Position numbers and translations under genes: made by a program. This document shows, piece by piece, positions 4,539 to 16,001 of a stretch of DNA of 16,001 bases. Numbering within the stretch: position 1 is the stretch's first letter; each line of letters begins with the position of its first letter. The DNA lies in IMG/VR virus record IMGVR_UViG_3300045988_160359, positions 181,570-197,570 of that record; one strand, 5' to 3'. Source of the stretch: a virus. The notes beneath the pieces are model-generated. The model was not told the DNA's origin and ran no database searches. It saw nothing but the letters and a program-made list of their open reading frames with translations.

Positions 4539-4852
4539 TAGTAAATATCACACCCATCTACAATTTCATCAGAATCATACAGTTTCTGAAAACATCCGAC
4601 CAAATCTTCATTGTCAATGCGAGTGACAGACTTCATACAACTGAGCCTGTCAAACATATCAGTCAAACGATTGTCCTCAATACCCTCATAATGAATAGTC
4701 CTTACCTGATAATCCTCGTGATGAGGAACGCACAGATGGATATTAATGAAATATGCCAAGCTAACCTTCAACAGACTCTTGTTCTCATCAAACATTACGA
4801 CGTCCTTATCATGATAGCCATCGTCCAGGACCAAAGCCTTAATCATATTCAT
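4538..4852 (-). CDS. Hypothetical protein (~104 aa, MNMIKALVLDDGYHDKD...)
   Basis: Track ORF 4538..4888 begins at a TTG. An in-frame ATG at 4850-4852 is preceded by an AAGGAA RBS. The stop is in TAATG overlap with the next gene. Confidence 0.65.
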   Translation of the reverse strand: MNMIKALVLDDGYHDKDVVMFDENKSLLKVSLAYFINIHLCVPHHEDYQVRTIHYEGIEDNRLTDMFDRLSCMKSVTRIDNEDLVGCFQKLYDSDEIVDGCDIY

Positions 4853-4871
4853 CAATTCCTTTCTTGTTTCA

Positions 4872-5075
4872 TTATACAAAATTTCCAAGTTCTTTTAGCG
4901 AAGTGAAGAATTCACTAGCCATAGTCTCATTGAGTTGAAGGTCAATCTTATCTCCACTAAAATTAGTAATAGAGAAATTGTAGATACCATTTTCCTTATT
5001 GAGACGGATGTTGGTAGCAGATCTATCATCATCAGAGTTGATACAATAAGTTTTGTTAATGGTTAACATATTCAT
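4872..5075 (-). CDS. Hypothetical protein (~67 aa)
   Basis: Track ORF 4872..5078 with a TTG extension. Real ATG at 5073-5075 after an AAAGGAATTG RBS. It overlaps the 3' end of the 57-aa Cys ORF. Confidence 0.6.
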   Translation of the reverse strand: MNMLTINKTYCINSDDDRSATNIRLNKENGIYNFSITNFSGDKIDLQLNETMASEFFTSLKELGNFV

Positions 5076-5229
5076 CAATTCCTTTTAATTCATTATATAA
5101 ATCCATAATCAATCTATGAGAACATTTCAGAGGATATGTTTCCATATCTGTATCATATTTTTTATATGGACATTCATCACATATAAATTCAGTACAGCAT
5201 TCAAGTGCTTTTTTAATTTCTTCTTTCAT
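5056..5229 (-). CDS. Cys-rich mini-protein (57 aa, MKEEIKKALECCTEFICDECPYKKY...CSH), putative Zn-binding
   Basis: Not in the track. Its ATG is the ATAAG-ATG of cassette C, only about 13 nt after the -10, so it is near-leaderless. CCx4CxxC...CxH pattern. The stop overlaps the next gene's start region. Confidence 0.4.
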   Translation of the reverse strand: MKEEIKKALECCTEFICDECPYKKYDTDMETYPLKCSHRLIMDLYNELKGIDEYVNH

Positions 5230-5240
5230 CTTATATATAT

Positions 5241-5269
5241 ATTATATTATATTTTTTTTAAAAAATCAA
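5241..5269 (-). promoter_or_regulatory. Promoter cassette copy C
   Basis: Minus: TTGATT ttttaaaaaaaatataa TATAAT ATATATATAAGATG. Plus AATCAA at 5264-5269 and ATTATA at 5241-5246. The -35 overlaps the stop of the upstream 49-aa ORF. No terminator lies upstream. Confidence 0.75.
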
Positions 5270-5415
5270 TCGAATAGATTTTTACCAAACTCTCTGCGGT
5301 ATGCGTCTTCGAACATATGCCAATTACCGCAGAAATAGGTATCTACATACCAGTCAACCAAATCGGCGTTAACAGCCTCTTTGATAATGCTAGCAAATAC
5401 ATCTGTGTAATCCAT
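5266..5415 (-). CDS. Small protein (49 aa, MDYTDVFASIIKEAVNADLVDWYVDTYFCGNWHMFEDAYRREFGKNLFD)
   Basis: Not in the track. The ATG overlaps the stop of 5415..5723 (TAATG) with a GAGGAGG RBS inside the upstream gene's end. I read the frame codon by codon. Confidence 0.5.
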   Translation of the reverse strand: MDYTDVFASIIKEAVNADLVDWYVDTYFCGNWHMFEDAYRREFGKNLFD

Positions 5416-5723
5416 TAATATGCCTCCTCAACCTGATACCAAGTAGCAAGAGAACGATGAGTATAATAGCGTGTATACGCATCTACCCAAATAGCCTCCT
5501 CAGCCCACTGAATATGTTCTTTGGCCAGCTCATCGCGTACCTGCTCAACATAATAGTCAATAGTATTATCAAAAATAACACCCTGCTCAACCAAATTATC
5601 ATAGAAAGTATCTACAATAATCTGAGCGCGCATATTGACTACGCCGGGGTCACAAACAATAAATGCAGAACGAGCTCGGTCATCAGATCTCAAACCATAT
5701 TTTATATGATAACGATAATTCAT
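5415..5723 (-). CDS. Paralog family member 3 of 3 (102 aa; N-terminal YRYHIKYGL..., C-terminal ...TWYQVEEAY)
   Basis: ATG at 5721-5723. Its RBS GAGGAG lies in the last codons of the upstream paralog. It shares the N-terminal YxIxYGL motif and the C-terminal WYxVE motif with 5726..6082 and 6082..6447. Confidence 0.8.
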   Translation of the reverse strand: MNYRYHIKYGLRSDDRARSAFIVCDPGVVNMRAQIIVDTFYDNLVEQGVIFDNTIDYYVEQVRDELAKEHIQWAEEAIWVDAYTRYYTHRSLATWYQVEEAY

Positions 5724-5725
5724 AA

Positions 5726-6082
5726 TTACAACTCCTCAAATGGGTCATTAATGTCCATCAATTCCGCCTGATACCAAATATGGTCTTCAAGCATATCATT
5801 GTATTTATTAACCCCAAGGGCCCAGAATGATTGACCTTTATATTCCGGACCCACCGGACGTTTGCCAGTCAAATATTTTACTTTATCTCGGTATTCTTCA
5901 ACAAACTCACCAATAGAATGATTCCATTTAAATCTCTTTCCACGAGCCAGAGCTTCAAAATGATTACGAGCAATACATTGAGCATCTTCAAGAGCCTCTT
6001 CAAGACTCTCGCTATAACGAGTCATAGTTATCATATCGCCCACATCATAAGTGCCGTAAGTAAGCAAATATTTATGAAACAT
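5726..6082 (-). CDS. Paralog family member 2 of 3 (~118 aa, MFHKYLLTYGTYD...WYQAELMDINDPFEEL)
   Basis: Track ORF 5726..6097 is extended. Real ATG at 6080-6082 with a GGGAGGAG RBS, in TAATG overlap with the stop of 6082..6447. Confidence 0.8.
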   Translation of the reverse strand: MFHKYLLTYGTYDVGDMITMTRYSESLEEALEDAQCIARNHFEALARGKRFKWNHSIGEFVEEYRDKVKYLTGKRPVGPEYKGQSFWALGVNKYNDMLEDHIWYQAELMDINDPFEEL

Positions 6083-6447
6083 TAGAACTCCTCCCACTCT
6101 TCTTCTATTGGTATTAACGAAGGAGCTATATCAGGGGCTTTTTCTACTTTATACCAAACATAGTCATCAATCATTGACCAGTATAAATTATTAACATAGT
6201 CCCATGTAGCATCCCATTTATCCCAAGTATTAGGTAAATGTAAATCTTTTATTACTTTTTCGTAAACTTTCTTTTGGCTGGGAAATCGGGCACGGTTTTC
6301 ATTCGCTTTACGGAAAAATAAACTATGGGCTACCCGTGCCGCTCGGGATTGAGCCTGTTCTATATTAGAGGCATTAATAAATATACGACCTTTAAATATG
6401 CCTTCATGAATTATATTATATAGACCATACTCAATCTTATACATCAT
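6082..6447 (-). CDS. Paralog family member 1 of 3 (121 aa, MMYKIEYGLYN...WYKVEKAPD...EEEWEEF)
   Basis: ATGATG at 6447 after the cassette D leader AAGGAAGGAAA. Acidic Trp-rich C-terminus. Confidence 0.8.
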   Translation of the reverse strand: MMYKIEYGLYNIIHEGIFKGRIFINASNIEQAQSRAARVAHSLFFRKANENRARFPSQKKVYEKVIKDLHLPNTWDKWDATWDYVNNLYWSMIDDYVWYKVEKAPDIAPSLIPIEEEWEEF

Positions 6448-6479
6448 AAGCCCATTTCCTTCCTTTACCTTATATATAT

Positions 6480-6508
6480 ATTATATAATAATTTTTAATA
6501 AAAATCAA
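6480..6508 (-). promoter_or_regulatory. Promoter cassette copy D
   Basis: Minus: TTGATT tttattaaaaattatta TATAAT ATATATATAAGGTAAAGGAAGGAAATGG. Plus AATCAA at 6503-6508 and ATTATA at 6480-6485. Confidence 0.8.
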
Positions 6509-6517
6509 TAAAAAAAA

Positions 6518-6544
6518 ATAGGGATAGTATTATACTATCCCTAT
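6518..6544 (-). terminator. Rho-independent terminator ending the 8731..6551 operon
   Basis: 12-bp stem atagggatagta / tactatccctat with loop tta. It is followed on the minus strand by an 8-9 nt U-run (plus 6510-6518 A-run) that merges into the region upstream of promoter D's -35. Confidence 0.8.
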
Positions 6545-6550
6545 TATATA

Positions 6551-6718
6551 TTAATGCTCACGAGGGTGAGCTTCCATATATTCCTTAATGCGGTCGCCAT
6601 CATACCGGCTTGGACATTCCGCACATAAAAACGAACCATAGTTCTTACAAACGTGAATATCCTCATTGGTATTCGGGTCCTTGGGGATATTCAACGGGTC
6701 AAACGCACAATAAATCAT
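6551..6718 (-). CDS. Zn-ribbon-like mini-protein (55 aa, MIYCAFDPLNIPKDPNTNEDIHVCKNYGSFLCAECPS...)
   Basis: Not in the track. ATG at 6716-6718 with RBS GAAGAGGTAAAAGA. Cys at C4, C24, C32 and C35. Its stop lies at the base of the terminator. Confidence 0.5.
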   Translation of the reverse strand: MIYCAFDPLNIPKDPNTNEDIHVCKNYGSFLCAECPSRYDGDRIKEYMEAHPREH

Positions 6719-6733
6719 TCTTTTACCTCTTCA

Positions 6734-7045
6734 TCACCAATTCATTTCAATATATACTTTATTGCCCGTCCAGTTATCCATAGCCATACACTCCTTGCGG
6801 ATAGTACTGATAATCAGATTGAATAGACAATTATAATCGAACTCTTCCTTATCCAGATTCTCGTCCATAGAGAGAAAACCATCTTCTACAAAATCAATGC
6901 GAACGAGGTCTTCACTATATAGTTCGCATTGAGTTATGAGCATATCCCACATATCCAAGAAACAGACATCATAAGTTTTAATGGAATGCTTACACAGTTC
7001 GTAGGCATCACTGAATCGAATGACGTGCCACGTATAAATATTCAT
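6734..7045 (-). CDS. Hypothetical protein (~103 aa, MNIYTWHVIRF...)
   Basis: Track ORF 6734..7054 has a TTG extension. The ATG is preceded by AAAGGATTGATTGAT, whose SD lies in the upstream gene's last codons. Confidence 0.7.
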   Translation of the reverse strand: MNIYTWHVIRFSDAYELCKHSIKTYDVCFLDMWDMLITQCELYSEDLVRIDFVEDGFLSMDENLDKEEFDYNCLFNLIISTIRKECMAMDNWTGNKVYIEMNW

Positions 7046-7050
7046 ATCAA

Positions 7051-7341
7051 TCAATCCTTTCTATTGGGATTGCGGATAATAATTTCTTCTACCTCTTGGG
7101 TACGAATAGGATAAGTTTCAGGAATAGCATTGAAGGCATCAATGATACAATCAAGGTCAGTCTGTTGAGCTATTGTAGTGAAATAAGGGCACTCGCCGCC
7201 CTTTGCCATTGGACAAGTCTCAGAATGACTTAGACCCCAACTACAAAACCAAATTGTGCGATCGTTCCAAGGCATATCAGTGGGATTAGAATAAGGACAA
7301 TCTTCTACCTGAGTAGGCATTTTATCAACAAGGATTTTCAT
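7051..7341 (-). CDS. Cys-rich small protein (~96 aa) with repeated CPY motifs (DCPYSNP ... ECPYFTT)
   Basis: Track ORF 7051..7386 is 5'-extended. The ATG for MKILVDKMPTQ follows a perfect GAGGAGA RBS that lies in the last codons of the upstream gene. Confidence 0.7.
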   Translation of the reverse strand: MKILVDKMPTQVEDCPYSNPTDMPWNDRTIWFCSWGLSHSETCPMAKGGECPYFTTIAQQTDLDCIIDAFNAIPETYPIRTQEVEEIIIRNPNRKD

Positions 7342-7726
7342 AAGTAACTGTCTCCTCATAAGTTGGAATAATTGGGCACTTTTCATTTTTCTCTGCTACT
7401 GGACAATGATTAAGAGTCTCACGACACATGGTCATTTCATCGCCAGTCCAACTATTATAATTCAAATAACTCATATCACAATTTGTAGGATTAGGAACGA
7501 AAGAAGTATCCGTATCATAATTGTCAAGATGAATTTCATTCTTCTCATTTTTACACCGCAGACGCCGACCACAATACGGACAATAGTTTATCTGACGCTG
7601 AATATGAATGAAATCATCATCATAATCGCTCCACTCACCGGTCTCAATATCGAAATACCAAGCATCATCAGTGGGATTGTAATAAACTTCGTGGTCATAC
7701 ATCTTCGGATTACAGCAATCACACAT
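7325..7726 (-). CDS. Cys-rich Zn-finger-like protein (~133 aa, MCDCCNPKMYDHE...CPYCGRRLRC...)
   Basis: Track ORF 7325..7741 is extended by TTG. Real ATG at 7724-7726 (GGGGGGAAATGTA ATG) in TAATG overlap with the upstream stop. Has CDCC and CPYCx4C motifs plus further Cys and His. Confidence 0.7.
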   Translation of the reverse strand: MCDCCNPKMYDHEVYYNPTDDAWYFDIETGEWSDYDDDFIHIQRQINYCPYCGRRLRCKNEKNEIHLDNYDTDTSFVPNPTNCDMSYLNYNSWTGDEMTMCRETLNHCPVAEKNEKCPIIPTYEETVTYENPC

Positions 7727-7995
7727 TACATTTCCCCCCAAGGTCTTTCTTCGATTTCACACTCAAACTTTGTCAGACGATACCGCTTATTACTGATATT
7801 TTTAGGAGCGAGACAATCCATCATAAACGCCGCATTGAATTCCATCGGGCCGGTAAACTCCGTAGATTCTCCATTGGCGCGTGCCTTACGAATCAGATTA
7901 CCAACATATGCTTTGGCTTGTGCATCGTTTTCAGCAATGATTACCTGCTTAGTAAACTCCATACCCTGATGGGCGTAATAAATATACATTTTCAT
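7726..7995 (-). CDS. Hypothetical protein (89 aa)
   Basis: ATG at 7993-7995 with a GGAGGTAAGATGAT RBS embedded in the upstream gene's last codons. Confidence 0.75.
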   Translation of the reverse strand: MKMYIYYAHQGMEFTKQVIIAENDAQAKAYVGNLIRKARANGESTEFTGPMEFNAAFMMDCLAPKNISNKRYRLTKFECEIEERPWGEM

Positions 7996-7996
7996 A

Positions 7997-8731
7997 TCAT
8001 CTTACCTCCGCAACACGAGTTAATATAGTCTGATGAATGTTGTGATAGAGATTATAATTCTTCACAGTCCCGCGAATACGATGCTTAGTACCCTCGGGCC
8101 AGTCCTTCGCAGTAGTAGTCCAGAGATAAATGTTTCCGGACTCGTCCTCAAAAGTCATCATATTGGAATGACCATAATTGGTTTCCAGTTTGTAATTACG
8201 AATGACCACAATACTGCGGTCAATGCGCTCACCAACAGCGCCCTGATACTGACTGGGATGCTCTGGCCACAATAAAGCATCAATATTCTCGTGGATTTCG
8301 GCATCAGTCTTCAACTTCTCGTCATCATTACCAACCAGCGCCCACTCCAACTTCATAGGATTACAGTCAGTAGGCAAGTCCTCAGGAAGGTCGATATCAG
8401 AAGGGAAATACCAGCCCCACAGCCGGCAATACCGGGCAGGAGAATACTTAAAATACTCATTGTTTTCATCCATTCCACCATTCTTAAAAATGGTGATATA
8501 ATCATTTACAAAACCCAGAACAATCTTCTGGGTCTTAAAGGGAATGCTCTGCGGTTCAGCGATGCCATACATCTTGTTATATTCGTCCTCGCTATACCAC
8601 CGCACTTGTCTAGTGCTACCGTTCTTGGGGTTCTGGACCTTCACATACTGACGTCCATTAACAGTATATACCTCGCTCACAATGGCGTAGGACTGGAAAG
8701 ACTTCGCTACCATTTGTATCATTCCCTTCAT
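7997..8731 (-). CDS. Hypothetical protein (238-244 aa), first gene of operon E
   Basis: Three in-frame ATGs lie at the 5' end (8731, 8722, 8713). By analogy with the cassette B leader, the third (MVAKSFQSYAIV..., 8713) is homologous to the gene start used in copy B. No family recognised. The N- and C-terminal thirds have a beta-rich, OB-like character (impression only). Confidence 0.8.
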   Translation of the reverse strand: MKGMIQMVAKSFQSYAIVSEVYTVNGRQYVKVQNPKNGSTRQVRWYSEDEYNKMYGIAEPQSIPFKTQKIVLGFVNDYITIFKNGGMDENNEYFKYSPARYCRLWGWYFPSDIDLPEDLPTDCNPMKLEWALVGNDDEKLKTDAEIHENIDALLWPEHPSQYQGAVGERIDRSIVVIRNYKLETNYGHSNMMTFEDESGNIYLWTTTAKDWPEGTKHRIRGTVKNYNLYHNIHQTILTRVAEVR

Positions 8732-9485: not shown

Positions 9486-9735
9486 TAGTCTCCTCCCACC
9501 ATTTGGTAAACGGCATCCAGTGAAGAACAATATCGCCCTCGCAAATATTGCCCCAGACTTCTCCATCATAATCCCAATAACTTACTGAATAACTCTCTTC
9601 GGTCATATCGGGGCGGCCCCGATAAACAGGAGCGGTATGAACGACATAGGCCTTAGCCTTATCTTTAAGAGACGGATAATCACTGGGCACGCTTTCAAGA
9701 GCATTTACCCAACCACTTTTAATTTCAACGCTCAT
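9478..9735 (-). CDS. DUF551-like small protein (85 aa; ...GDIVLHWMPFTKWWEETNA)
   Basis: ATG at 9733-9735 lies inside the last codons of the upstream gene. The C-terminal HWMP motif with a Trp-rich tail and the N-terminal W...L.S.P segment resemble Pfam DUF551, from memory. Confidence 0.45.
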   Translation of the reverse strand: MSVEIKSGWVNALESVPSDYPSLKDKAKAYVVHTAPVYRGRPDMTEESYSVSYWDYDGEVWGNICEGDIVLHWMPFTKWWEETNA

Positions 9736-10018
9736 AAATAATCAAATTTCCTTCCTTATCATATAAGGGCGAGAGTGCTCCATTTGTATAAATATATACG
9801 ACGCCAGTATTTCGGTCAGCGACCGCATATGCATCTCCACCTAGCACCTCGCCCTTATCAACTGGGATAAATAGTTCTCTATCTTCTGGAAATACGATAC
9901 CATTATCTACGGTATTAGGTTTAAATAACGAGAAAATGTTAATAAACATAACCGCCACTAACAGAATCGCCGCAGTCAGGCACGCTGTTCCAAGATATTT
10001 CTTAATCGAATCCAACAT
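9725..10018 (-). CDS. Membrane-anchored small protein, paralog 2 of 2 (~97 aa)
   Basis: N-terminal TM helix (CLTAAILLVAVMFINIF), then FPEDRELFIPVDKGEVLGGDAYAVADRNTGVVYIYTNGALSPLYDKEGNLIIY. This aligns clearly with 10002..10364. The ATG (second codon of the track ORF) lies within the 3' end of the upstream paralog. Confidence 0.8.
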   Translation of the reverse strand: MLDSIKKYLGTACLTAAILLVAVMFINIFSLFKPNTVDNGIVFPEDRELFIPVDKGEVLGGDAYAVADRNTGVVYIYTNGALSPLYDKEGNLIIYER

Positions 10019-10364
10019 CAACTATTTCCTCGCTGGGGTCATATATCATCAATGACCCATCCTCATTATATAGCGGACAAAAACTGCCATATCCACCGAC
10101 GAAAATATACATAACGCCAGTAATAGAATCGGCATACACCGTGGCGGCATGTCCGCATACCTCACCACTATCTATTTTTAGAAATCGCTCACTGTCAATA
10201 GGGAAAAAACTCCCGTCTTGTAGTTCTTCCATTTTGTTCGCTGGACCGTTTACATAACTTTGTTCCATCTTATGGACTGTCTTAACTACTACCCAAATCA
10301 TCATACCCAAGAGTAATATCAGACAGACCCAAATCATAAAACGGTCTAAATCTATCTTCTTCAT
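10002..10364 (-). CDS. Membrane-anchored small protein, paralog 1 of 2 (120 aa)
   Basis: ATG with a GGAGGT RBS. TM helix (FMIWVCLILLLGMMIWVVV), then FPIDSERFLKIDSGEVCGHAATVYADSITGVMYIFVGGYGSFCPLYNEDGSLMIYD. Confidence 0.8.
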   Translation of the reverse strand: MKKIDLDRFMIWVCLILLLGMMIWVVVKTVHKMEQSYVNGPANKMEELQDGSFFPIDSERFLKIDSGEVCGHAATVYADSITGVMYIFVGGYGSFCPLYNEDGSLMIYDPSEEIVDVGFD

Positions 10365-11401: not shown

Positions 11402-11590
11402 TTAAATCATTTTAACAGTAGATGCCTGAAACACCACTTCGCCAGTACTCATATCCACAATGAGAAAATCAACGAAAGGAAGAGTACCATAGGCAAATTT
11501 CTTAGTATAAATATCGAATGCTTCCTTGTAGGTATCAAAATCGGTCTCAACAACATCATCGTCATCCCAAATTTCAACAATCTTAAACAT
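11402..11590 (-). CDS. Small acidic protein (~62 aa, MFKIVEIWDDDDVVETDFDTYKEAFDIY...)
   Basis: Track ORF 11402..11695 is 5'-extended in another frame over the 47-aa ORF. The real ATG follows a GAGGGATTGAT RBS, 1 nt after the upstream stop. Confidence 0.55.
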   Translation of the reverse strand: MFKIVEIWDDDDVVETDFDTYKEAFDIYTKKFAYGTLPFVDFLIVDMSTGEVVFQASTVKMI

Positions 11591-11591
11591 A

Positions 11592-11735
11592 TCAATCCCT
11601 CGCATATGACCATTCCATATCATTGTAATCAGCAGGAGCATTCTCTCGGAGCAATTTCTCAACCTCTTTGTCAGTCCAATCATCAGGGACTTCAACTACA
11701 TCAAGGACGGAATAATTCACAAAAACAGTTCTCAT
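11592..11735 (-). CDS. Mini-protein paralog (47 aa, MRTVFVNYSVLDVVEVPDDWTDKEVEKLLRENAPADYNDMEWSYARD)
   Basis: Not in the track. First ORF after cassette F, with leader RBS AAAGGTGATTTCTCA ATG. It aligns with 11018..11194. Confidence 0.55.
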   Translation of the reverse strand: MRTVFVNYSVLDVVEVPDDWTDKEVEKLLRENAPADYNDMEWSYARD

Positions 11736-11764
11736 TGAGAAATCACCTTTCCTTTACCTTATAT

Positions 11765-11793
11765 ATATATTATATTATAAATTTTTAAAAAAA
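11765..11793 (-). promoter_or_regulatory. Promoter cassette copy F
   Basis: Minus: TTGATT tttttaaaaatttataa TATAAT ATATATATAAGGTAAAGGAAAGGTG. Plus AATCAA at 11788-11793 and ATTATA at 11765-11770. Only a weak 6-bp hairpin lies upstream (gagaga...tctctc), so there is no strong terminator here. Confidence 0.75.
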
Positions 11794-11797
11794 TCAA

Positions 11798-12094
11798 TTA
11801 GAGAGAATATTTCTTGATAAAATCTCTCAAACCGTAGTCATAAAGGTCGGCATCAAGCTGGTCATCGTTGATATCGTCGAACGCATTAGGGATTTCGTAG
11901 ATTGCGTAATCATACTCGCGTTCACCCTCCTCGTAGAGGTCGGTCAATGTAGTATAACTATCAATCAGTTCATCACACAAACATCGACCGATTTCATCGG
12001 CCTCACTAAAAGTATTAATGTGGTAGATGCCGCAATTGAAATATCCGTGGAGCCCGCCATAATAGGGCTCAGTTGCGTAAATTGCTACTCTCAC
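11798..12094 (-). CDS. Acidic protein (~98 aa), a possible ArdA-like DNA-mimic or anti-restriction candidate (low confidence)
   Basis: The best start is GTG at 12092-12094. GAGAGGAG lies 7 nt upstream and the GTG is in 4-nt GTGA overlap with the HNH gene's stop. The track's upstream ATG (12121) has no SD. The N-terminal VAIYATEPYYGGLHGYF loosely resembles the ArdA N-terminal IYVANLxxYNxGxLxGxW motif. The C-terminal half is strongly D/E/Y-rich. Confidence 0.6.
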   Translation of the reverse strand: MRVAIYATEPYYGGLHGYFNCGIYHINTFSEADEIGRCLCDELIDSYTTLTDLYEEGEREYDYAIYEIPNAFDDINDDQLDADLYDYGLRDFIKKYSL

Positions 12095-12804
12095 GCTTTT
12101 ACTCCTCTCAAATAATTCCATTTACGAGAATACATAGAACCATTCATACGAATGGTATTGCACAGCTTAAAGAAAAACTTCTCTTCGGTGGTGCTAACCT
12201 TAGAATTGTGCTGACAAAGCCAATCCATAGCCTCCATTGCCGTGCCTCTAAAACCATCATTGTTGATAAAAACAGTATCAAGAGTGATACCCTCTTGAAC
12301 AATGAAGGCGCGACAAGTAGTATCAGTAGTAGTAGCCAGCCATTTACCCAGAATATCGCCGCAGTTTTCCAGAATTTTCCCAGTATCCCGGTCGGTGGGT
12401 TCGGCGGTCTCAATAGGTTTAATAGGCTCAGTACCTGCATTGATTACAACAGGGACAGGGCTCGCCACAATATCATTGTTAGCGCGCATAAGATTCTCGG
12501 CCTGGCTAACCCATTCCAGATTATCAACGCGGTTATTGCGCTTATTGTGATCGAGATGGTCAACAGTGAATGCCTCGCGGTCTTCGATGGGACACCACGT
12601 ATACATTACCAAACGATGTGCCATACGGTTGCCGTGTTTGGTCTTTACAGACACATAGCCGTTCTGAGAATAAATTTTCTTAGGAATAGGACGCTTATGA
12701 ATGTCCTTAAAGTTGCCGAAGTTGGAAACCCAAACTCCATACTCCTTATTAAACTTCCACTTTTCAAACTCAATATGCAAGGTGGGAAAAATCATCATAA
12801 ACAT
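12091..12804 (-). CDS. HNH homing endonuclease (NUMOD4 N-terminal motif plus HNH_3-type core)
   Basis: EFEKWKFNKEYGVWVSNFGNFKD matches the N-terminal signature of phage HNH homing endonucleases. HRLVMYTWCPIEDREAFTVDHLDHNKRNNRVDNLEWVSQAENL is the HNH_3 catalytic motif (DH..-N-N.....NL.W......N). ATG is M2 of the track ORF, with an AAAGGAATTG RBS. It is driven by its own cassette copy G. Confidence 0.85.
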   Translation of the reverse strand: MFMMIFPTLHIEFEKWKFNKEYGVWVSNFGNFKDIHKRPIPKKIYSQNGYVSVKTKHGNRMAHRLVMYTWCPIEDREAFTVDHLDHNKRNNRVDNLEWVSQAENLMRANNDIVASPVPVVINAGTEPIKPIETAEPTDRDTGKILENCGDILGKWLATTTDTTCRAFIVQEGITLDTVFINNDGFRGTAMEAMDWLCQHNSKVSTTEEKFFFKLCNTIRMNGSMYSRKWNYLRGVKA

Positions 12805-12834
12805 CAATTCCTTTCTCTTTTACCTTATATATAT

Positions 12835-12863
12835 ATTATATAATAATTTTTAAAAAAAATCAA
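12835..12863 (-). promoter_or_regulatory. Promoter cassette copy G (drives the HNH endonuclease)
   Basis: Minus: TTGATT ttttttaaaaattatta TATAAT ATATATATAAGGTAAAAGAGAAAGGAATTG ATG. The -35 (plus 12858-12863) lies inside the left arm of the terminator stem at 12860-12898. Confidence 0.8.
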
Positions 12864-12898
12864 TAGAGGATTTTACGTTTGGTAAAATCCTCTATTGA
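12860..12898 (-). terminator. Rho-independent terminator ending operon H
   Basis: 17-bp stem (12860-12876 / 12882-12898; ...atagaggattttac gtttg gtaaaatcctctat...). Followed on the minus strand by a U-run (plus 12852-12857 A-run). It begins 9 nt after the stop of 12907..13191. Confidence 0.8.
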
Positions 12899-12906
12899 CT
12901 AAACTA

Positions 12907-13191
12907 TTAGAAATTGACGTGCGCGTCTACCTGAACGCTATATACAGCCTTGGGTTTCATCTCAGCGAAAGCAACCCACTCTTGATGCCCCTGTTCAGCT
13001 CTCGCTCTATCAGGATATCGCTGAACGATGATAATATCGCCATCGCCCTTCCACATAGCGGTTTCATAGCCCTGGTCCACAGTATCACAAGTGTCAATGG
13101 TATAATCGCCAATAACATCGTGACCCACCTTATCAGCCTTTGAATAATCATTATTCATAATACCGAACATCAAATCAAACAAAGAATCCAT
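12907..13191 (-). CDS. Acidic hypothetical protein (~94 aa, MDSLFDLMFGIMNNDYSKADKV...)
   Basis: Track ORF 12907..13215 is extended. The ATG at 13189-13191 follows a perfect AAGGAGGTACAGT RBS. Confidence 0.75.
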   Translation of the reverse strand: MDSLFDLMFGIMNNDYSKADKVGHDVIGDYTIDTCDTVDQGYETAMWKGDGDIIIVQRYPDRARAEQGHQEWVAFAEMKPKAVYSVQVDAHVNF

Positions 13192-13202
13192 ACTGTACCT
13201 CC

Positions 13203-13595
13203 TTACGGCGCCCAATCTATCGGCTCAATCTCCATCCACCATCCGGCTCTAAACCAACTGGTGAGAGGATTTGACCGAGCCCTCTGACATCTATATACTC
13301 GATAATTAAAATCGTAAACTTTATTATAAATAGTATTGTAGGTAGCTTCATTAGTCTCTGCGTCATCACCATACCGTTCAATGTATCGAACGATATTTGC
13401 GCGTTCCGCATCTATCTGAAACTTATCATAGTCGCAAAGGCGTATAAAGAAACAGACAATGCCTAATGCGAGGAAAGCACAAAGAGCAACTCCTCCGATG
13501 ACACTAATACATTCATTTGTATCAACATCTCGAATCTTATGAAATAGAATGCTACAAATTACAAATACTACAAGAGGCAGCAATAAGAGAATCAT
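13203..13595 (-). CDS. Two-TM membrane protein, paralog 2 of 2 (~130 aa; ...NPLTSWFRAGWWMEIEPIDWAP)
   Basis: The ATG (M3 of the track ORF) is in 4-nt ATGA overlap with the upstream stop, 6 nt after AAGGAGG. Two hydrophobic helices precede a soluble C-terminal domain ending in the TSWFxxxW motif shared with 13592..13996. Confidence 0.8.
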   Translation of the reverse strand: MILLLLPLVVFVICSILFHKIRDVDTNECISVIGGVALCAFLALGIVCFFIRLCDYDKFQIDAERANIVRYIERYGDDAETNEATYNTIYNKVYDFNYRVYRCQRARSNPLTSWFRAGWWMEIEPIDWAP

Positions 13596-13996
13596 TTCCA
13601 TCCTCCTTCTGGAAATTCTACGGTAGTTAGGTCAGCCATCCAAGAGCGACCAAACCAAGAAGTCCATTCGTTGTTATAAGTATCGCGCATCGAGATAACC
13701 AATTCATTGTATTCATCTACATCGTGGACGAGTTCCGAGGTCAGACGAGCATCTTTGCGCCAATACTCATCATTAATACGCAGTTCAAGGAGCGCACGCT
13801 CCTTATCCATCGCGTCTTGGGTGCGGAGGTCAGAATCAAATGGCGTACAGGCACACATCGCCCCGCACACAATAAGACCAATCGCACAGCAAACCGCAAT
13901 TAAGAGAAAAGCCATAGAAATATCACGGTTTTCAAACTTATGGCACAGATAAGCGCTGATAATAAATACTATAATAAACAAAATAGTAGTTAGCAT
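13592..13996 (-). CDS. Two-TM membrane protein, paralog 1 of 2 (134 aa; ...NNEWTSWFGRSWMADLTTVEFPEGGWK)
   Basis: ATG at 13994-13996 overlaps the upstream stop (ATGCTAA). Helices VFIISAYLCHKFENRD and ISMAFLLIAVCCAIGLIVCGAM align with the paralog. Confidence 0.8.
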   Translation of the reverse strand: MLTTILFIIVFIISAYLCHKFENRDISMAFLLIAVCCAIGLIVCGAMCACTPFDSDLRTQDAMDKERALLELRINDEYWRKDARLTSELVHDVDEYNELVISMRDTYNNEWTSWFGRSWMADLTTVEFPEGGWK

Positions 13997-14366: not shown

Positions 14367-14539
14367 TATAACACCTGTTCCTTTATAAAGAATATAGTCA
14401 TAAGAATAAATCCTATAACCTCAAAAATTACTACTATTCCAAAAGGCCATTCTCCATTTTTAAACGCGCACCACATTGTCTCAATCCCTATACAGATAGA
14501 GCCTCCAAGAACCATAAGGAGAATAAGGTGGAATATCAT
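14366..14539 (-). CDS. Two-TM membrane mini-protein (57 aa, MIFHLILLMVLGGSICIGIETMWCAFKNGEWPFGIVVIFEVIGFILMTIFFIKEQVL)
   Basis: Track ORF 14366..14611 is 5'-extended over the upstream gene. The real ATG at 14537-14539 follows a perfect GGAGGAACGCT RBS, in ATGA overlap with the stop of 14536..14724. Confidence 0.65.
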   Translation of the reverse strand: MIFHLILLMVLGGSICIGIETMWCAFKNGEWPFGIVVIFEVIGFILMTIFFIKEQVL

Positions 14540-14724
14540 AGCGTTCCTCCAATCAATTGAACAATGAGGACAATCCACATAGTAATGAGAGCAACTGCGA
14601 CAAGAATACACATAAATGCTATCATAATATCGAATAATTTACTCTCACTCTTTTCGTGGAGAAATGTATTAAAAAAGAAAAAGCCGATACCTGTGAGAAC
14701 GAGAGCAAACAGTATTTTATTCAT
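14536..14724 (-). CDS. Two-TM membrane mini-protein (62 aa)
   Basis: ATG at 14722-14724 with a GGGGAGGAAG RBS, in ATGA overlap with the phosphoesterase stop. Helices ILFALVLTGIGFFFF and IMIAFMCILVAVALITMWIVLIV. Confidence 0.75.
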   Translation of the reverse strand: MNKILFALVLTGIGFFFFNTFLHEKSESKLFDIMIAFMCILVAVALITMWIVLIVQLIGGTL

Positions 14725-15464
14725 TGCGGCTTCCTCCCCAATCGGTAGCCACGCTTACGAGCGTTATACGTGGCTCTATCAATCGTATCGCGATGAATAG
14801 ATACGATGTTCGCGAGATGGCCTTCTTTCATAAATTTATTGAAATTTATAGGCTCGTAGCCAATCACATCAGCGCATACATTAAAGTGATATTTATCATT
14901 TTTATGAGAGCGGGAATGATCGTGCCCGTGAATATTCATACACCAATCACATCCCTTAATAGGCTCGTGAGAGAGCATCAGCTTCTCTCCAATGACTAAA
15001 ACACCAGTGTATACCTCGTCGAAAAGGCGGTTATCGGCGCTGACTTCCCAGCAAGGAACATTGTCGAGAAAATCATAACTATCGGTAATGGAGTAAGCGC
15101 AATCAGGATAGAGACGCTTCATCTCATCCAATGCTTCGTGCTTCTGGAATAGACCCTTATCAAATTTCTGCCTGAAAATCTGACGCTTATAGTTGGAAGC
15201 ACCAGAATCGTGGTTGCCCATTACGAGAATTTTATACTTGGCACGAAGCTGGCACACATAGGAAATATCGCCAACATCACCAAGGATAATCAGCGTATCA
15301 GCCCTGCCACACTTAGCATTAATGCGTTTCACTTGCTCTTCGGCGGAGGGACGGTCAGCATATACGTGAATGAGGTCGGGGTCATTAAAATGCGTATCTG
15401 AAATAATATGACACGTACCGGACGCGCCCCAATACTGAAACGGCGGGTAGAGACCTTCAATCAT
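14721..15464 (-). CDS. Calcineurin-like metallophosphoesterase (Ser/Thr-phosphatase-like), 247 aa
   Basis: MPP signature motifs occur in order: IISDTHF (DxH), LIILGDVGD (GDxxD), LVMGNHD (GNHD) and NIHGHDH (GHxH). ATG at 15462-15464 with an AAGGAGGAGG RBS. Confidence 0.85.
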   Translation of the reverse strand: MIEGLYPPFQYWGASGTCHIISDTHFNDPDLIHVYADRPSAEEQVKRINAKCGRADTLIILGDVGDISYVCQLRAKYKILVMGNHDSGASNYKRQIFRQKFDKGLFQKHEALDEMKRLYPDCAYSITDSYDFLDNVPCWEVSADNRLFDEVYTGVLVIGEKLMLSHEPIKGCDWCMNIHGHDHSRSHKNDKYHFNVCADVIGYEPINFNKFMKEGHLANIVSIHRDTIDRATYNARKRGYRLGRKPQ

Positions 15465-15709: not shown

Positions 15710-15952
15710 TCACATAATCTCATCGAACGCCTGTTCGATTGCGTCATCTTCCCGATAATGATAACTGTCTTCCAGTTCAATGGCTCGTGCAGCGATTCTA
15801 TCCACACAAGCCTCGGACTCAGGGTAGTTTTCAAGAATATAATCGCGCTTGGTAAGGAAACGATACTCATCGTATGCATCTTTAAGGTCATTCATAGTCA
15901 TCTCAACAGTCTGGCCGTATTCAGTTCTGAAACGCATTACAATATCATTCAT
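15710..15952 (-). CDS. Acidic hypothetical protein (80 aa), first gene of operon H
   Basis: ATG at 15950-15952 directly after the cassette H leader. That leader and the first two codons (MN) are identical to those of the 716..2452 gene. Confidence 0.75.
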   Translation of the reverse strand: MNDIVMRFRTEYGQTVEMTMNDLKDAYDEYRFLTKRDYILENYPESEACVDRIAARAIELEDSYHYREDDAIEQAFDEIM

Positions 15953-15986
15953 TTTGTATCATTTCCTTTCTTCATCTTATATATAT

Positions 15987-16001
15987 ATTATATTATAAAT
16001 T
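15987..16001 (-). promoter_or_regulatory. Promoter cassette copy H (partial; -10 and leader only inside the window)
   Basis: 15947-16001 is identical to 2447-2501 (copy B). By that offset the -10 lies at 15987-15992 and the -35 would be just beyond the window end. Confidence 0.6.

Follow-up and report, generated by a model that had tools for sequence, protein, structure and literature searches.

The 16,001-nucleotide (nt) stretch of DNA analysed here, positions 181,570 to 197,570 of the IMG/VR virus record IMGVR_UViG_3300045988_160359 (hereafter the window), carries on its minus strand a gene for an HNH endonuclease. The nuclease qualifies as HNH_3/I-HmuI-like by profile, catalytic residues and fold alike, and it lacks the population signs tested for in a currently mobile homing gene: presence/absence polymorphism, reduced synonymous divergence (dS) or odd composition. 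We consider it likely that the product is a functional, free-standing, site-specific endonuclease resembling I-HmuI, encoded by a long-standing, clade-fixed resident of a promoter-dense early region, and the enzyme is probably a nicking one.

Family assignment is carried by Pfam HNH_3 (PF13392), which matches residues 61–105 (nt 12490–12624) with E = 2.9e-10 and 40.1 bits against a cutoff of 24.8 and is likewise matched by all 22 aligned homologues. PHROG 59 (E = 2e-25) and PHROG 959 (E = 1e-16), both labelled "HNH endonuclease", match the protein as well. For a profile built from the 22 homologues, I-HmuI (1u3e) is the sole significant relative of solved structure (E = 3e-8), and Foldseek against the PDB returns the same entry (E = 6.9e-7, probability 1.00; ~18% sequence identity), with the next match at E = 0.57. 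Residues D82, H83, N95 and N104 align with D74, H75, N87 and N96 of I-HmuI, a catalytic set that reportedly comprises a general-base His, metal-ligand Asp and Asn residues and a structural Asn, and these four columns are invariant across the 22 homologues (42–90% identity). A first-pass annotation of this DNA had proposed an HNH_3 catalytic core within a free-standing endonuclease of the I-HmuI or Mob kind, and both proposals are borne out by the profile, PHROG and 1u3e sequence and fold matches. Its description of the N-terminus as NUMOD4-like holds in part. NUMOD4 (PF07463) scores 15.7 bits on residues 14–54 (cutoff 23.4; E = 0.018) and reaches E ≤ 0.05 in 15 of the 22 homologues (best 6e-4), none of them reported above the cutoff; "like" appears fair, with family membership sub-threshold and unproven.

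The start codon calls for a small correction. The ATG at 12804 is replaced by ATA in relative L002, and the majority of database homologues begin with MMIFPTL or MIIFPTL: the conserved start is probably ATG 12798, which gives a product of 235 amino acids (aa). Two other kinds of HNH protein were considered and rejected, namely a terminase-associated HNH (packaging genes are not nearby and the family is HNH_3/I-HmuI-like) and an AP2-fused HNH (no AP2 match). The best database match reaches only 90% identity, and L073, the nearest locus, 95%. On the opposite strand, a 256-aa open reading frame (ORF) at 12073–12843 (+) covers the entire nuclease gene and is most likely a shadow ORF.

Three parts can be distinguished in the AlphaFold model (Table 1): a confident N-terminal domain (predicted local distance difference test, pLDDT, 80–93), a disordered linker (pLDDT 35–48) and a confident C-terminal domain. 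Fold matches of the C-terminal domain score weakly, yet they are consistently DNA-binding proteins. By sequence the domain has no relatives outside the phage group: among 1.84 billion representatives, searched exhaustively with phmmer, only 4 proteins matched, and a widespread shared module was rejected on this count. In one of these, P0135, the domain is attached to an N-terminus that is not HNH; two of the four appear to be remnants, truncated or frameshifted. The linkers of the window protein and of P0001 hold ~9 extra residues opposite a 9-column gap in the other full-length homologues; the extra stretch resembles a short tandem duplication (TEPIKPIETAEPT vs ATAEPT in ~100 other variants).

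Relatives of the locus were sought with six genes as anchors: the nuclease, the acidic gene directly downstream (F8), the last gene of the preceding operon (F7), a phosphoesterase gene (F2), F17, and F10, two genes downstream. This yielded 27 loci that contain F8, among them contigs from IMG/VR, ENA and Logan and of MGnify type. In every one of the 27 the nuclease immediately precedes F8, three times as an N-terminally deleted fusion, and no nuclease-less junction was found among close relatives under any of the six anchors. The first-pass annotation had seen a mobile gene at this site and had suggested looking for an empty site in related phages, taking an identical context in all relatives as a refutation; an identical context is what the comparison returned for every relative found. 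Loci anchored on F10 were picked irrespective of the nuclease; both informative ones carry it, and they stand for six further similar places. Relatives with F2 identity of ≤68% share larger genes only (F2, F17, DUF5052 and the 496-aa and 578-aa genes) and none of the small genes, and are therefore uninformative on the nuclease site. Nor was a further copy of the nuclease with its promoter cassette, described below, found elsewhere in the related genomes.

Divergence at the locus tells the same story. In Nei–Gojobori estimates against six relatives, the catalytic domain has a ratio of nonsynonymous divergence (dN) to dS, omega, of 0.04–0.08 at a dS of 0.44–1.34, and in the same pairs of genomes the flanking genes have a similar dS of ~0.2–1.9. 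In comparison with L015/L025, the most distant lineage, dN is 0.045–0.07 for the catalytic domain and 0.43–0.64 for the flanking genes F6b, F7 and F10. GC content, GC content at third codon positions and skew of the nuclease all lie less than one standard deviation from the other window genes, and a foreign composition was rejected accordingly. Since dS is similar to that of the flanks and composition is ordinary, there is no sign of recent insertion, which runs against the mobile gene of the first-pass annotation. The nuclease equals its neighbours in age at the site, and its catalytic domain is the most constrained segment of the neighbourhood; a newly arrived gene, or a selfish one in decay, would show the opposite pattern of age and constraint.

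The rest of the gene has evolved differently. In the linker, omega rises to 0.25–0.54 and identity falls to 40–70%. The C-terminal domain occurs in two allele classes, one in the window, L001, L002 and L025 and the other in L017, L024 and L015, with a dN of ~0.33 between them. Together with F8, this domain forms a mosaic between lineages: the allele classes are mosaic relative to the flanks, and both the mosaic boundary and the breakdown of identity fall in the linker. Recombination inside the nuclease gene is therefore indicated.

Upstream, the nuclease is the first gene behind a predicted intrinsic terminator and a promoter cassette whose −35 element sits within the 3′ arm of the terminator hairpin, an arrangement that the first-pass annotation had recognized. 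The hairpin has a free energy of −24.8 kcal/mol (z = −7.6), no shuffled sequence out of 200 was equally stable, and its stem carries compensatory changes in L001, L002, L017 and L024. By its consensus the nuclease cassette is inferred to be a sigma-70-type promoter, with a predicted transcription start near 12828. It belongs to a family, D1, with seven copies in the window by a 40-nt pattern, all on the minus (coding) strand and upstream of ORFs, against an expectation by chance of 0 (200 shuffles). A strong hairpin (−21 to −25 kcal/mol) precedes four of the seven copies, the nuclease copy included, and the remaining three have weak folds only.

The nuclease and F8 form a unit bounded by two cassette copies 1066 nt apart. 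At the second of these, downstream of F8, the best upstream fold reaches −9.7 kcal/mol; given this lack of a strong hairpin, read-through from the nuclease unit is likely. The stop codon of the nuclease (TGA 12093–12091) overlaps the GTG start of F8 (12094–12092) as GTGA, confirming the fusion to the downstream acidic gene that had been noted at first pass, and the Shine–Dalgarno (SD) sequence of F8, GAGAGGAG, lies at 12109–12102. In relatives the junction is ATGA or a 1-nt overlap. Translation of F8 thus appears to be coupled to that of the nuclease in all relatives.

Cassette and nuclease have not travelled together. Terminator and cassette stand directly upstream of the nuclease in 17 of the 23 loci with sufficient upstream sequence. 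In L015, L016 and L025, what precedes the nuclease is not a cassette but a 79-aa F7 homologue and a short promoterless spacer. In L015 and L025 the cassette is found upstream of the F7 homologue, a region for which the L016 sequence is too short. With its cassette beyond F7, this lineage shows that the cassette is no part of the nuclease unit; by sequence comparison, the nuclease and F8 stayed in place while the position of the cassette shifted. It is also missing in the three deletion-fusion loci, which encode P0108. Here an in-frame deletion joins the first 72 residues of a membrane protein encoded upstream to the nuclease at "FTVDH", taking out two genes, the cassette and nuclease residues 1–78, with GCG(T) microhomology at the junction.

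Other cassette copies and cassette-adjoining changes were observed alongside. Over the 55 nt that can be compared, which take in the 5′ leader and the first downstream codons (ATGATACAAAATGAAT), the copies at 15947–16001 and 2447–2501 show 100% identity. They match each other far more closely than they match the remaining copies, which points to recent duplication of, or gene conversion between, the two. Directly downstream of the 11735–11804 cassette, a segment of ~150 nt (11580–11735, with a 47-aa ORF at 11592–11735) is present in the window, L017 and L076 and missing from L001, L002, L024, L015 and L025. Of the further indels between close relatives, some abut cassettes (window ~6526–6551) and others do not (14538–14737). 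In many short contigs (L073–L075, L092–L094), sequence begins ~20–70 nt ahead of the gene that follows a cassette. The repeated cassettes are where assemblies break, which limits the use of such contigs for tracing cassette-flanked rearrangements.

F8 and the nuclease also occur apart. Seven distant F8 homologues, which share the motif IYA..YGGLHG at 28–45% identity, have no HNH-family ORF within 4 kb, and three of them (L085, L088 and L089) lie directly behind a promoter cassette. Their layout is that expected before a nuclease was inserted between promoter and F8, which is suggestive, if distant, evidence. Conversely, none of eight distant HNH homologues adjoins an F8 homologue. A colicin-type nuclease with a dedicated acidic immunity protein was therefore rejected as an obligate pair, with F8 found without HNH in seven cases and HNH without F8 in eight. 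The F8 family (IYA..YGGLHGMY, isoelectric point ~4, 98 to ~129 aa) occurs in several unrelated cassette-rich phage contigs (L051:13956–14267, L084–L089).

The eight distant nuclease homologues (L003–L010) come from other large phage contigs and share 43–56% identity over the N-terminal ~113 aa only; their C-terminal parts are unrelated and their neighbours differ. In L003, L009 and L010 the homologue is flanked by a metallophosphoesterase and an RNA ligase, in L008 by an RNA ligase and a polynucleotide-kinase-like protein. To judge from these sequences, the nuclease family as a whole is a modular, context-hopping gene. The homologues in L003, L008, L009 and L010 (~4600–8200 in each) sit within an apparent RNA-repair cluster, made up of a metallophosphoesterase, an RNA ligase with a PHA02142 OB-fold and an AAA_33/tRNA-ligase-kinase-like protein.

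We propose the following course of events. Host RNA polymerase with sigma-70/sigma-A would start at the cassette (~12828), just past the upstream terminator, and would transcribe nuclease and F8 together, with translation of F8 coupled through the GTGA. The protein would consist of a catalytic N-terminal module (D82/H83/N95/N104), a disordered linker of ~35 residues and a small C-terminal alpha/beta domain, which most likely binds DNA, sets the choice of target and directs site-specific nicking. Before the clade diversified, the HNH gene may have entered an existing operon of cassette and acidic gene and co-opted the resident promoter. The first-pass annotation had allowed for a cassette either co-opted or brought along; co-option is the more plausible, given the distant F8 homologues behind a cassette without a nuclease, and the L015/L016/L025 lineage speaks against a cassette tied to the gene. 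Later history would have been vertical inheritance under purifying selection, with recombination in the linker swapping C-terminal alleles and the cassette moving independently. The most likely role would be to cut the DNA of co-infecting related phages that lack the nuclease or carry another allele, with homing-type gene conversion or interference competition as the outcome; alternatively, the enzyme may serve a phage-beneficial early nuclease function.

Several observations weigh against a functional, long-resident site-specific endonuclease. A purely selfish homing gene, once fixed, is expected to decay; the strong constraint would mean either that homing continues into genomes that were not found or that the phage benefits, between which the data do not discriminate. 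The ancestral insertion is argued from F8 homologues at only 28–45% identity in non-syntenic surroundings, and relatives at intermediate distance were not found: F2 identity is either ≥85% with the nuclease or ≤68% with all small genes different. The P0108 deletion-fusion circulates in at least nine contigs, among them one of 174 kb and one of 198 kb, and P0134 is a frameshifted nuclease remnant, so the intact enzyme is dispensable for viability. The same deletion-fusion, which marks the enzyme as not essential, also tells against a domesticated, phage-beneficial early nuclease that nicks host DNA during takeover or attacks competing phages or satellites, possibly with the acidic protein as partner or modulator. 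Such a nuclease would suit the very strong, long-term purifying selection and the standing of the catalytic domain as the most conserved of the neighbourhood. It would also suit a consensus cassette of sigma-70 type that serves a block of small, early-type ORFs as well, and the coupling to the acidic gene kept in all relatives. The seven endonuclease-specific promoters of the free-standing homing genes of T4, moreover, are middle or late and never early (PMC2988022). Early timing, however, is read from the promoter sequence only, and F8 homologues without HNH and HNH homologues without F8 argue against an obligate pair; we regard this explanation as unlikely. A version in which a domesticated early nicking enzyme serves takeover or interference, the C-terminal alleles are alternative specificities and F8 is a modulator or DNA-mimic partner seems improbable to us.

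The varied contexts of the family in other large phages, with C-terminal domains swapped, could instead speak for an actively mobile homing gene that moves with or via its own terminator/promoter cassette, PeSL-like cassettes mediating the mobility. Seven of the eight distant homologues do lie directly behind a hairpin, T-run and promoter (~5 of 6 independent cases, as some contexts are related), against ~17–20% cassette-proximal genes in these loci by a rough count. The two-gene unit is flanked by cassette copies, some indels between close relatives abut cassettes, and a role of PeSL cassettes in mediating shuffling of this kind has been documented for T4-type phages (PMC2839356, PMC4122927). 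At the locus itself the evidence points the other way: the same site is occupied in all 27 relatives and no empty one was seen, dS equals that of the flanks with ordinary composition, the L015/L016/L025 lineage keeps the nuclease in place without a cassette of its own, and no cassette–nuclease copy was found elsewhere in the related genomes. Active mobility here is thus doubtful, and a resident endonuclease under purifying selection remains the reading that we prefer.

Compared with known systems, the nuclease is an ordinary new example of a known HNH kind, with an orphan, DNA-binding-like C-terminal domain. It shares with I-HmuI, the intron-encoded HNH nicking endonuclease of Bacillus phage SPO1 (1u3e), an N-terminal beta region and HNH_3 core, the D-H...N...N catalytic set and an elongated, modular build in which the C-terminal part, putatively DNA-binding in the window protein, stands apart. 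It differs from I-HmuI in being encoded by a free-standing gene and in having an alpha/beta orphan, not a helix-turn-helix, as its C-terminal domain; identity is ~18%, and the window nuclease is known from sequence and model. Like the Mob-type genes of T4 (e.g. MobE; PMC2988022), it is an intergenic HNH gene in the same orientation as its neighbours, with an immediate upstream promoter, a terminator close by and a start/stop overlap that suggests translational coupling. The T4 promoters are middle or late, whereas the window nuclease has a consensus cassette of host type, as do small early-type ORFs around it. The mob and seg genes of T4 are variably present in T-even phages, beside conserved genes that hold their targets, whereas the window nuclease is present in every relative and flanked by small ORFans.

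The cassettes resemble the PeSL of T4-type phages (PMC2839356, PMC4122927) in being repeated intergenic elements of ~70 nt with a sigma-70 promoter, an AT-rich stretch and an SD. In both, a stem-loop is often present and can overlap the −35, copies are dense among small ORFans and some indels abut them. The phage group is a different one, though, without sequence similarity, strong hairpins stand at only four of the seven window copies, and in the window clade the nuclease kept its place and the cassette shifted relative to the genes; the resemblance is one of form, read from sequence. What emerges is a well-supported free-standing I-HmuI-type HNH gene that has kept its locus across deep divergence while under strong purifying selection, a long residence that runs against the simple invade–fix–decay cycle expected for homing genes. 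PeSL-like terminator/promoter cassettes exist in an abundant, uncultured, ~200-kb gut phage lineage and can change position independently of the genes that they serve. Conceptually nothing here is new; the practical value lies in a correct annotation and in the natural variants, namely the two alleles of the C-terminal domain, the lineage without a cassette before the nuclease and the fusion that deletes the nuclease N-terminus.

Table 1. Features of the nuclease locus; positions are those of the window unless a locus is named.
Feature	Position	Strand	Details
HNH endonuclease coding sequence	12091..12804	−	237 aa from ATG 12804; stop TGA 12093–12091
N-terminal catalytic module, residues 1–112	12469..12804	−	NUMOD4-like beta region and beta-beta-alpha-metal HNH_3 core
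Flexible linker, residues 113–149	12358..12468	−	predicted disordered, many indels
C-terminal alpha/beta domain, residues 150–237	12094..12357	−	putative DNA-binding/specificity module
Promoter cassette copy	12809..12863	−	−35 TTGATT 12863–12858, 17-nt spacer, −10 TATAAT 12840–12835, ATATATATAAGG, SD AAAGGA 12814–12809
Predicted intrinsic terminator hairpin, end of upstream operon	12858..12900	−	19-bp stem, 5-nt loop, T8 run 12857–12850
F8, acidic 98-aa gene	11798..12094	−	isoelectric point ~4, motif IYA..YGGLHG; GTG start 12094–12092
Next cassette copy	11735..11804	−	−35 at 11797–11792 abuts TAA stop of acidic gene
F7, upstream 94-aa gene, last of preceding operon	12907..13191	−	
Membrane protein gene upstream of nuclease	13592–13996		fused to nuclease in deletion variant
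Phosphoesterase (F2)	14721–15464		~2 kb upstream of nuclease
P0108 deletion-fusion	L021:6001–6669, L022:1833–2501, L023:3565–4233		equivalent to window ~12570–13780

Every plausible gene of the window is encoded on the minus strand, and the region is a block of ~40 small ORFs with one cassette per 1–3 kb, which we take to resemble the host-takeover module of SPO1. The 94-aa (F7) and 98-aa (F8) neighbours of the nuclease have no match in Pfam or PHROG, and Rfam and tRNA scans across the window gave no matches. In its small ORFs the window resembles the PeSL-rich hyperplastic regions of T4-type phages (PMC2839356, PMC4122927). A DNA search found no near-identical match among GenBank phages, and tblastn returned distant HNH genes only (<40% identity), in Enterococcus, Staphylococcus and Lactococcus phages. 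The neighbouring DUF5052 protein has named relatives only in Lactobacillus phages. The relatives are metagenomic contigs of ~175–200 kb, whose ENA record names include Hadza-labelled assemblies, and two IMG/VR contigs match as well; from these sample names we infer a gut origin for the ~200-kb phage lineage. Further downstream, two adjacent genes (10002–10364 and 9725–10021) are tandem paralogues of ~41–44% identity, the homologues of which have a weak precomputed DUF6440 match.

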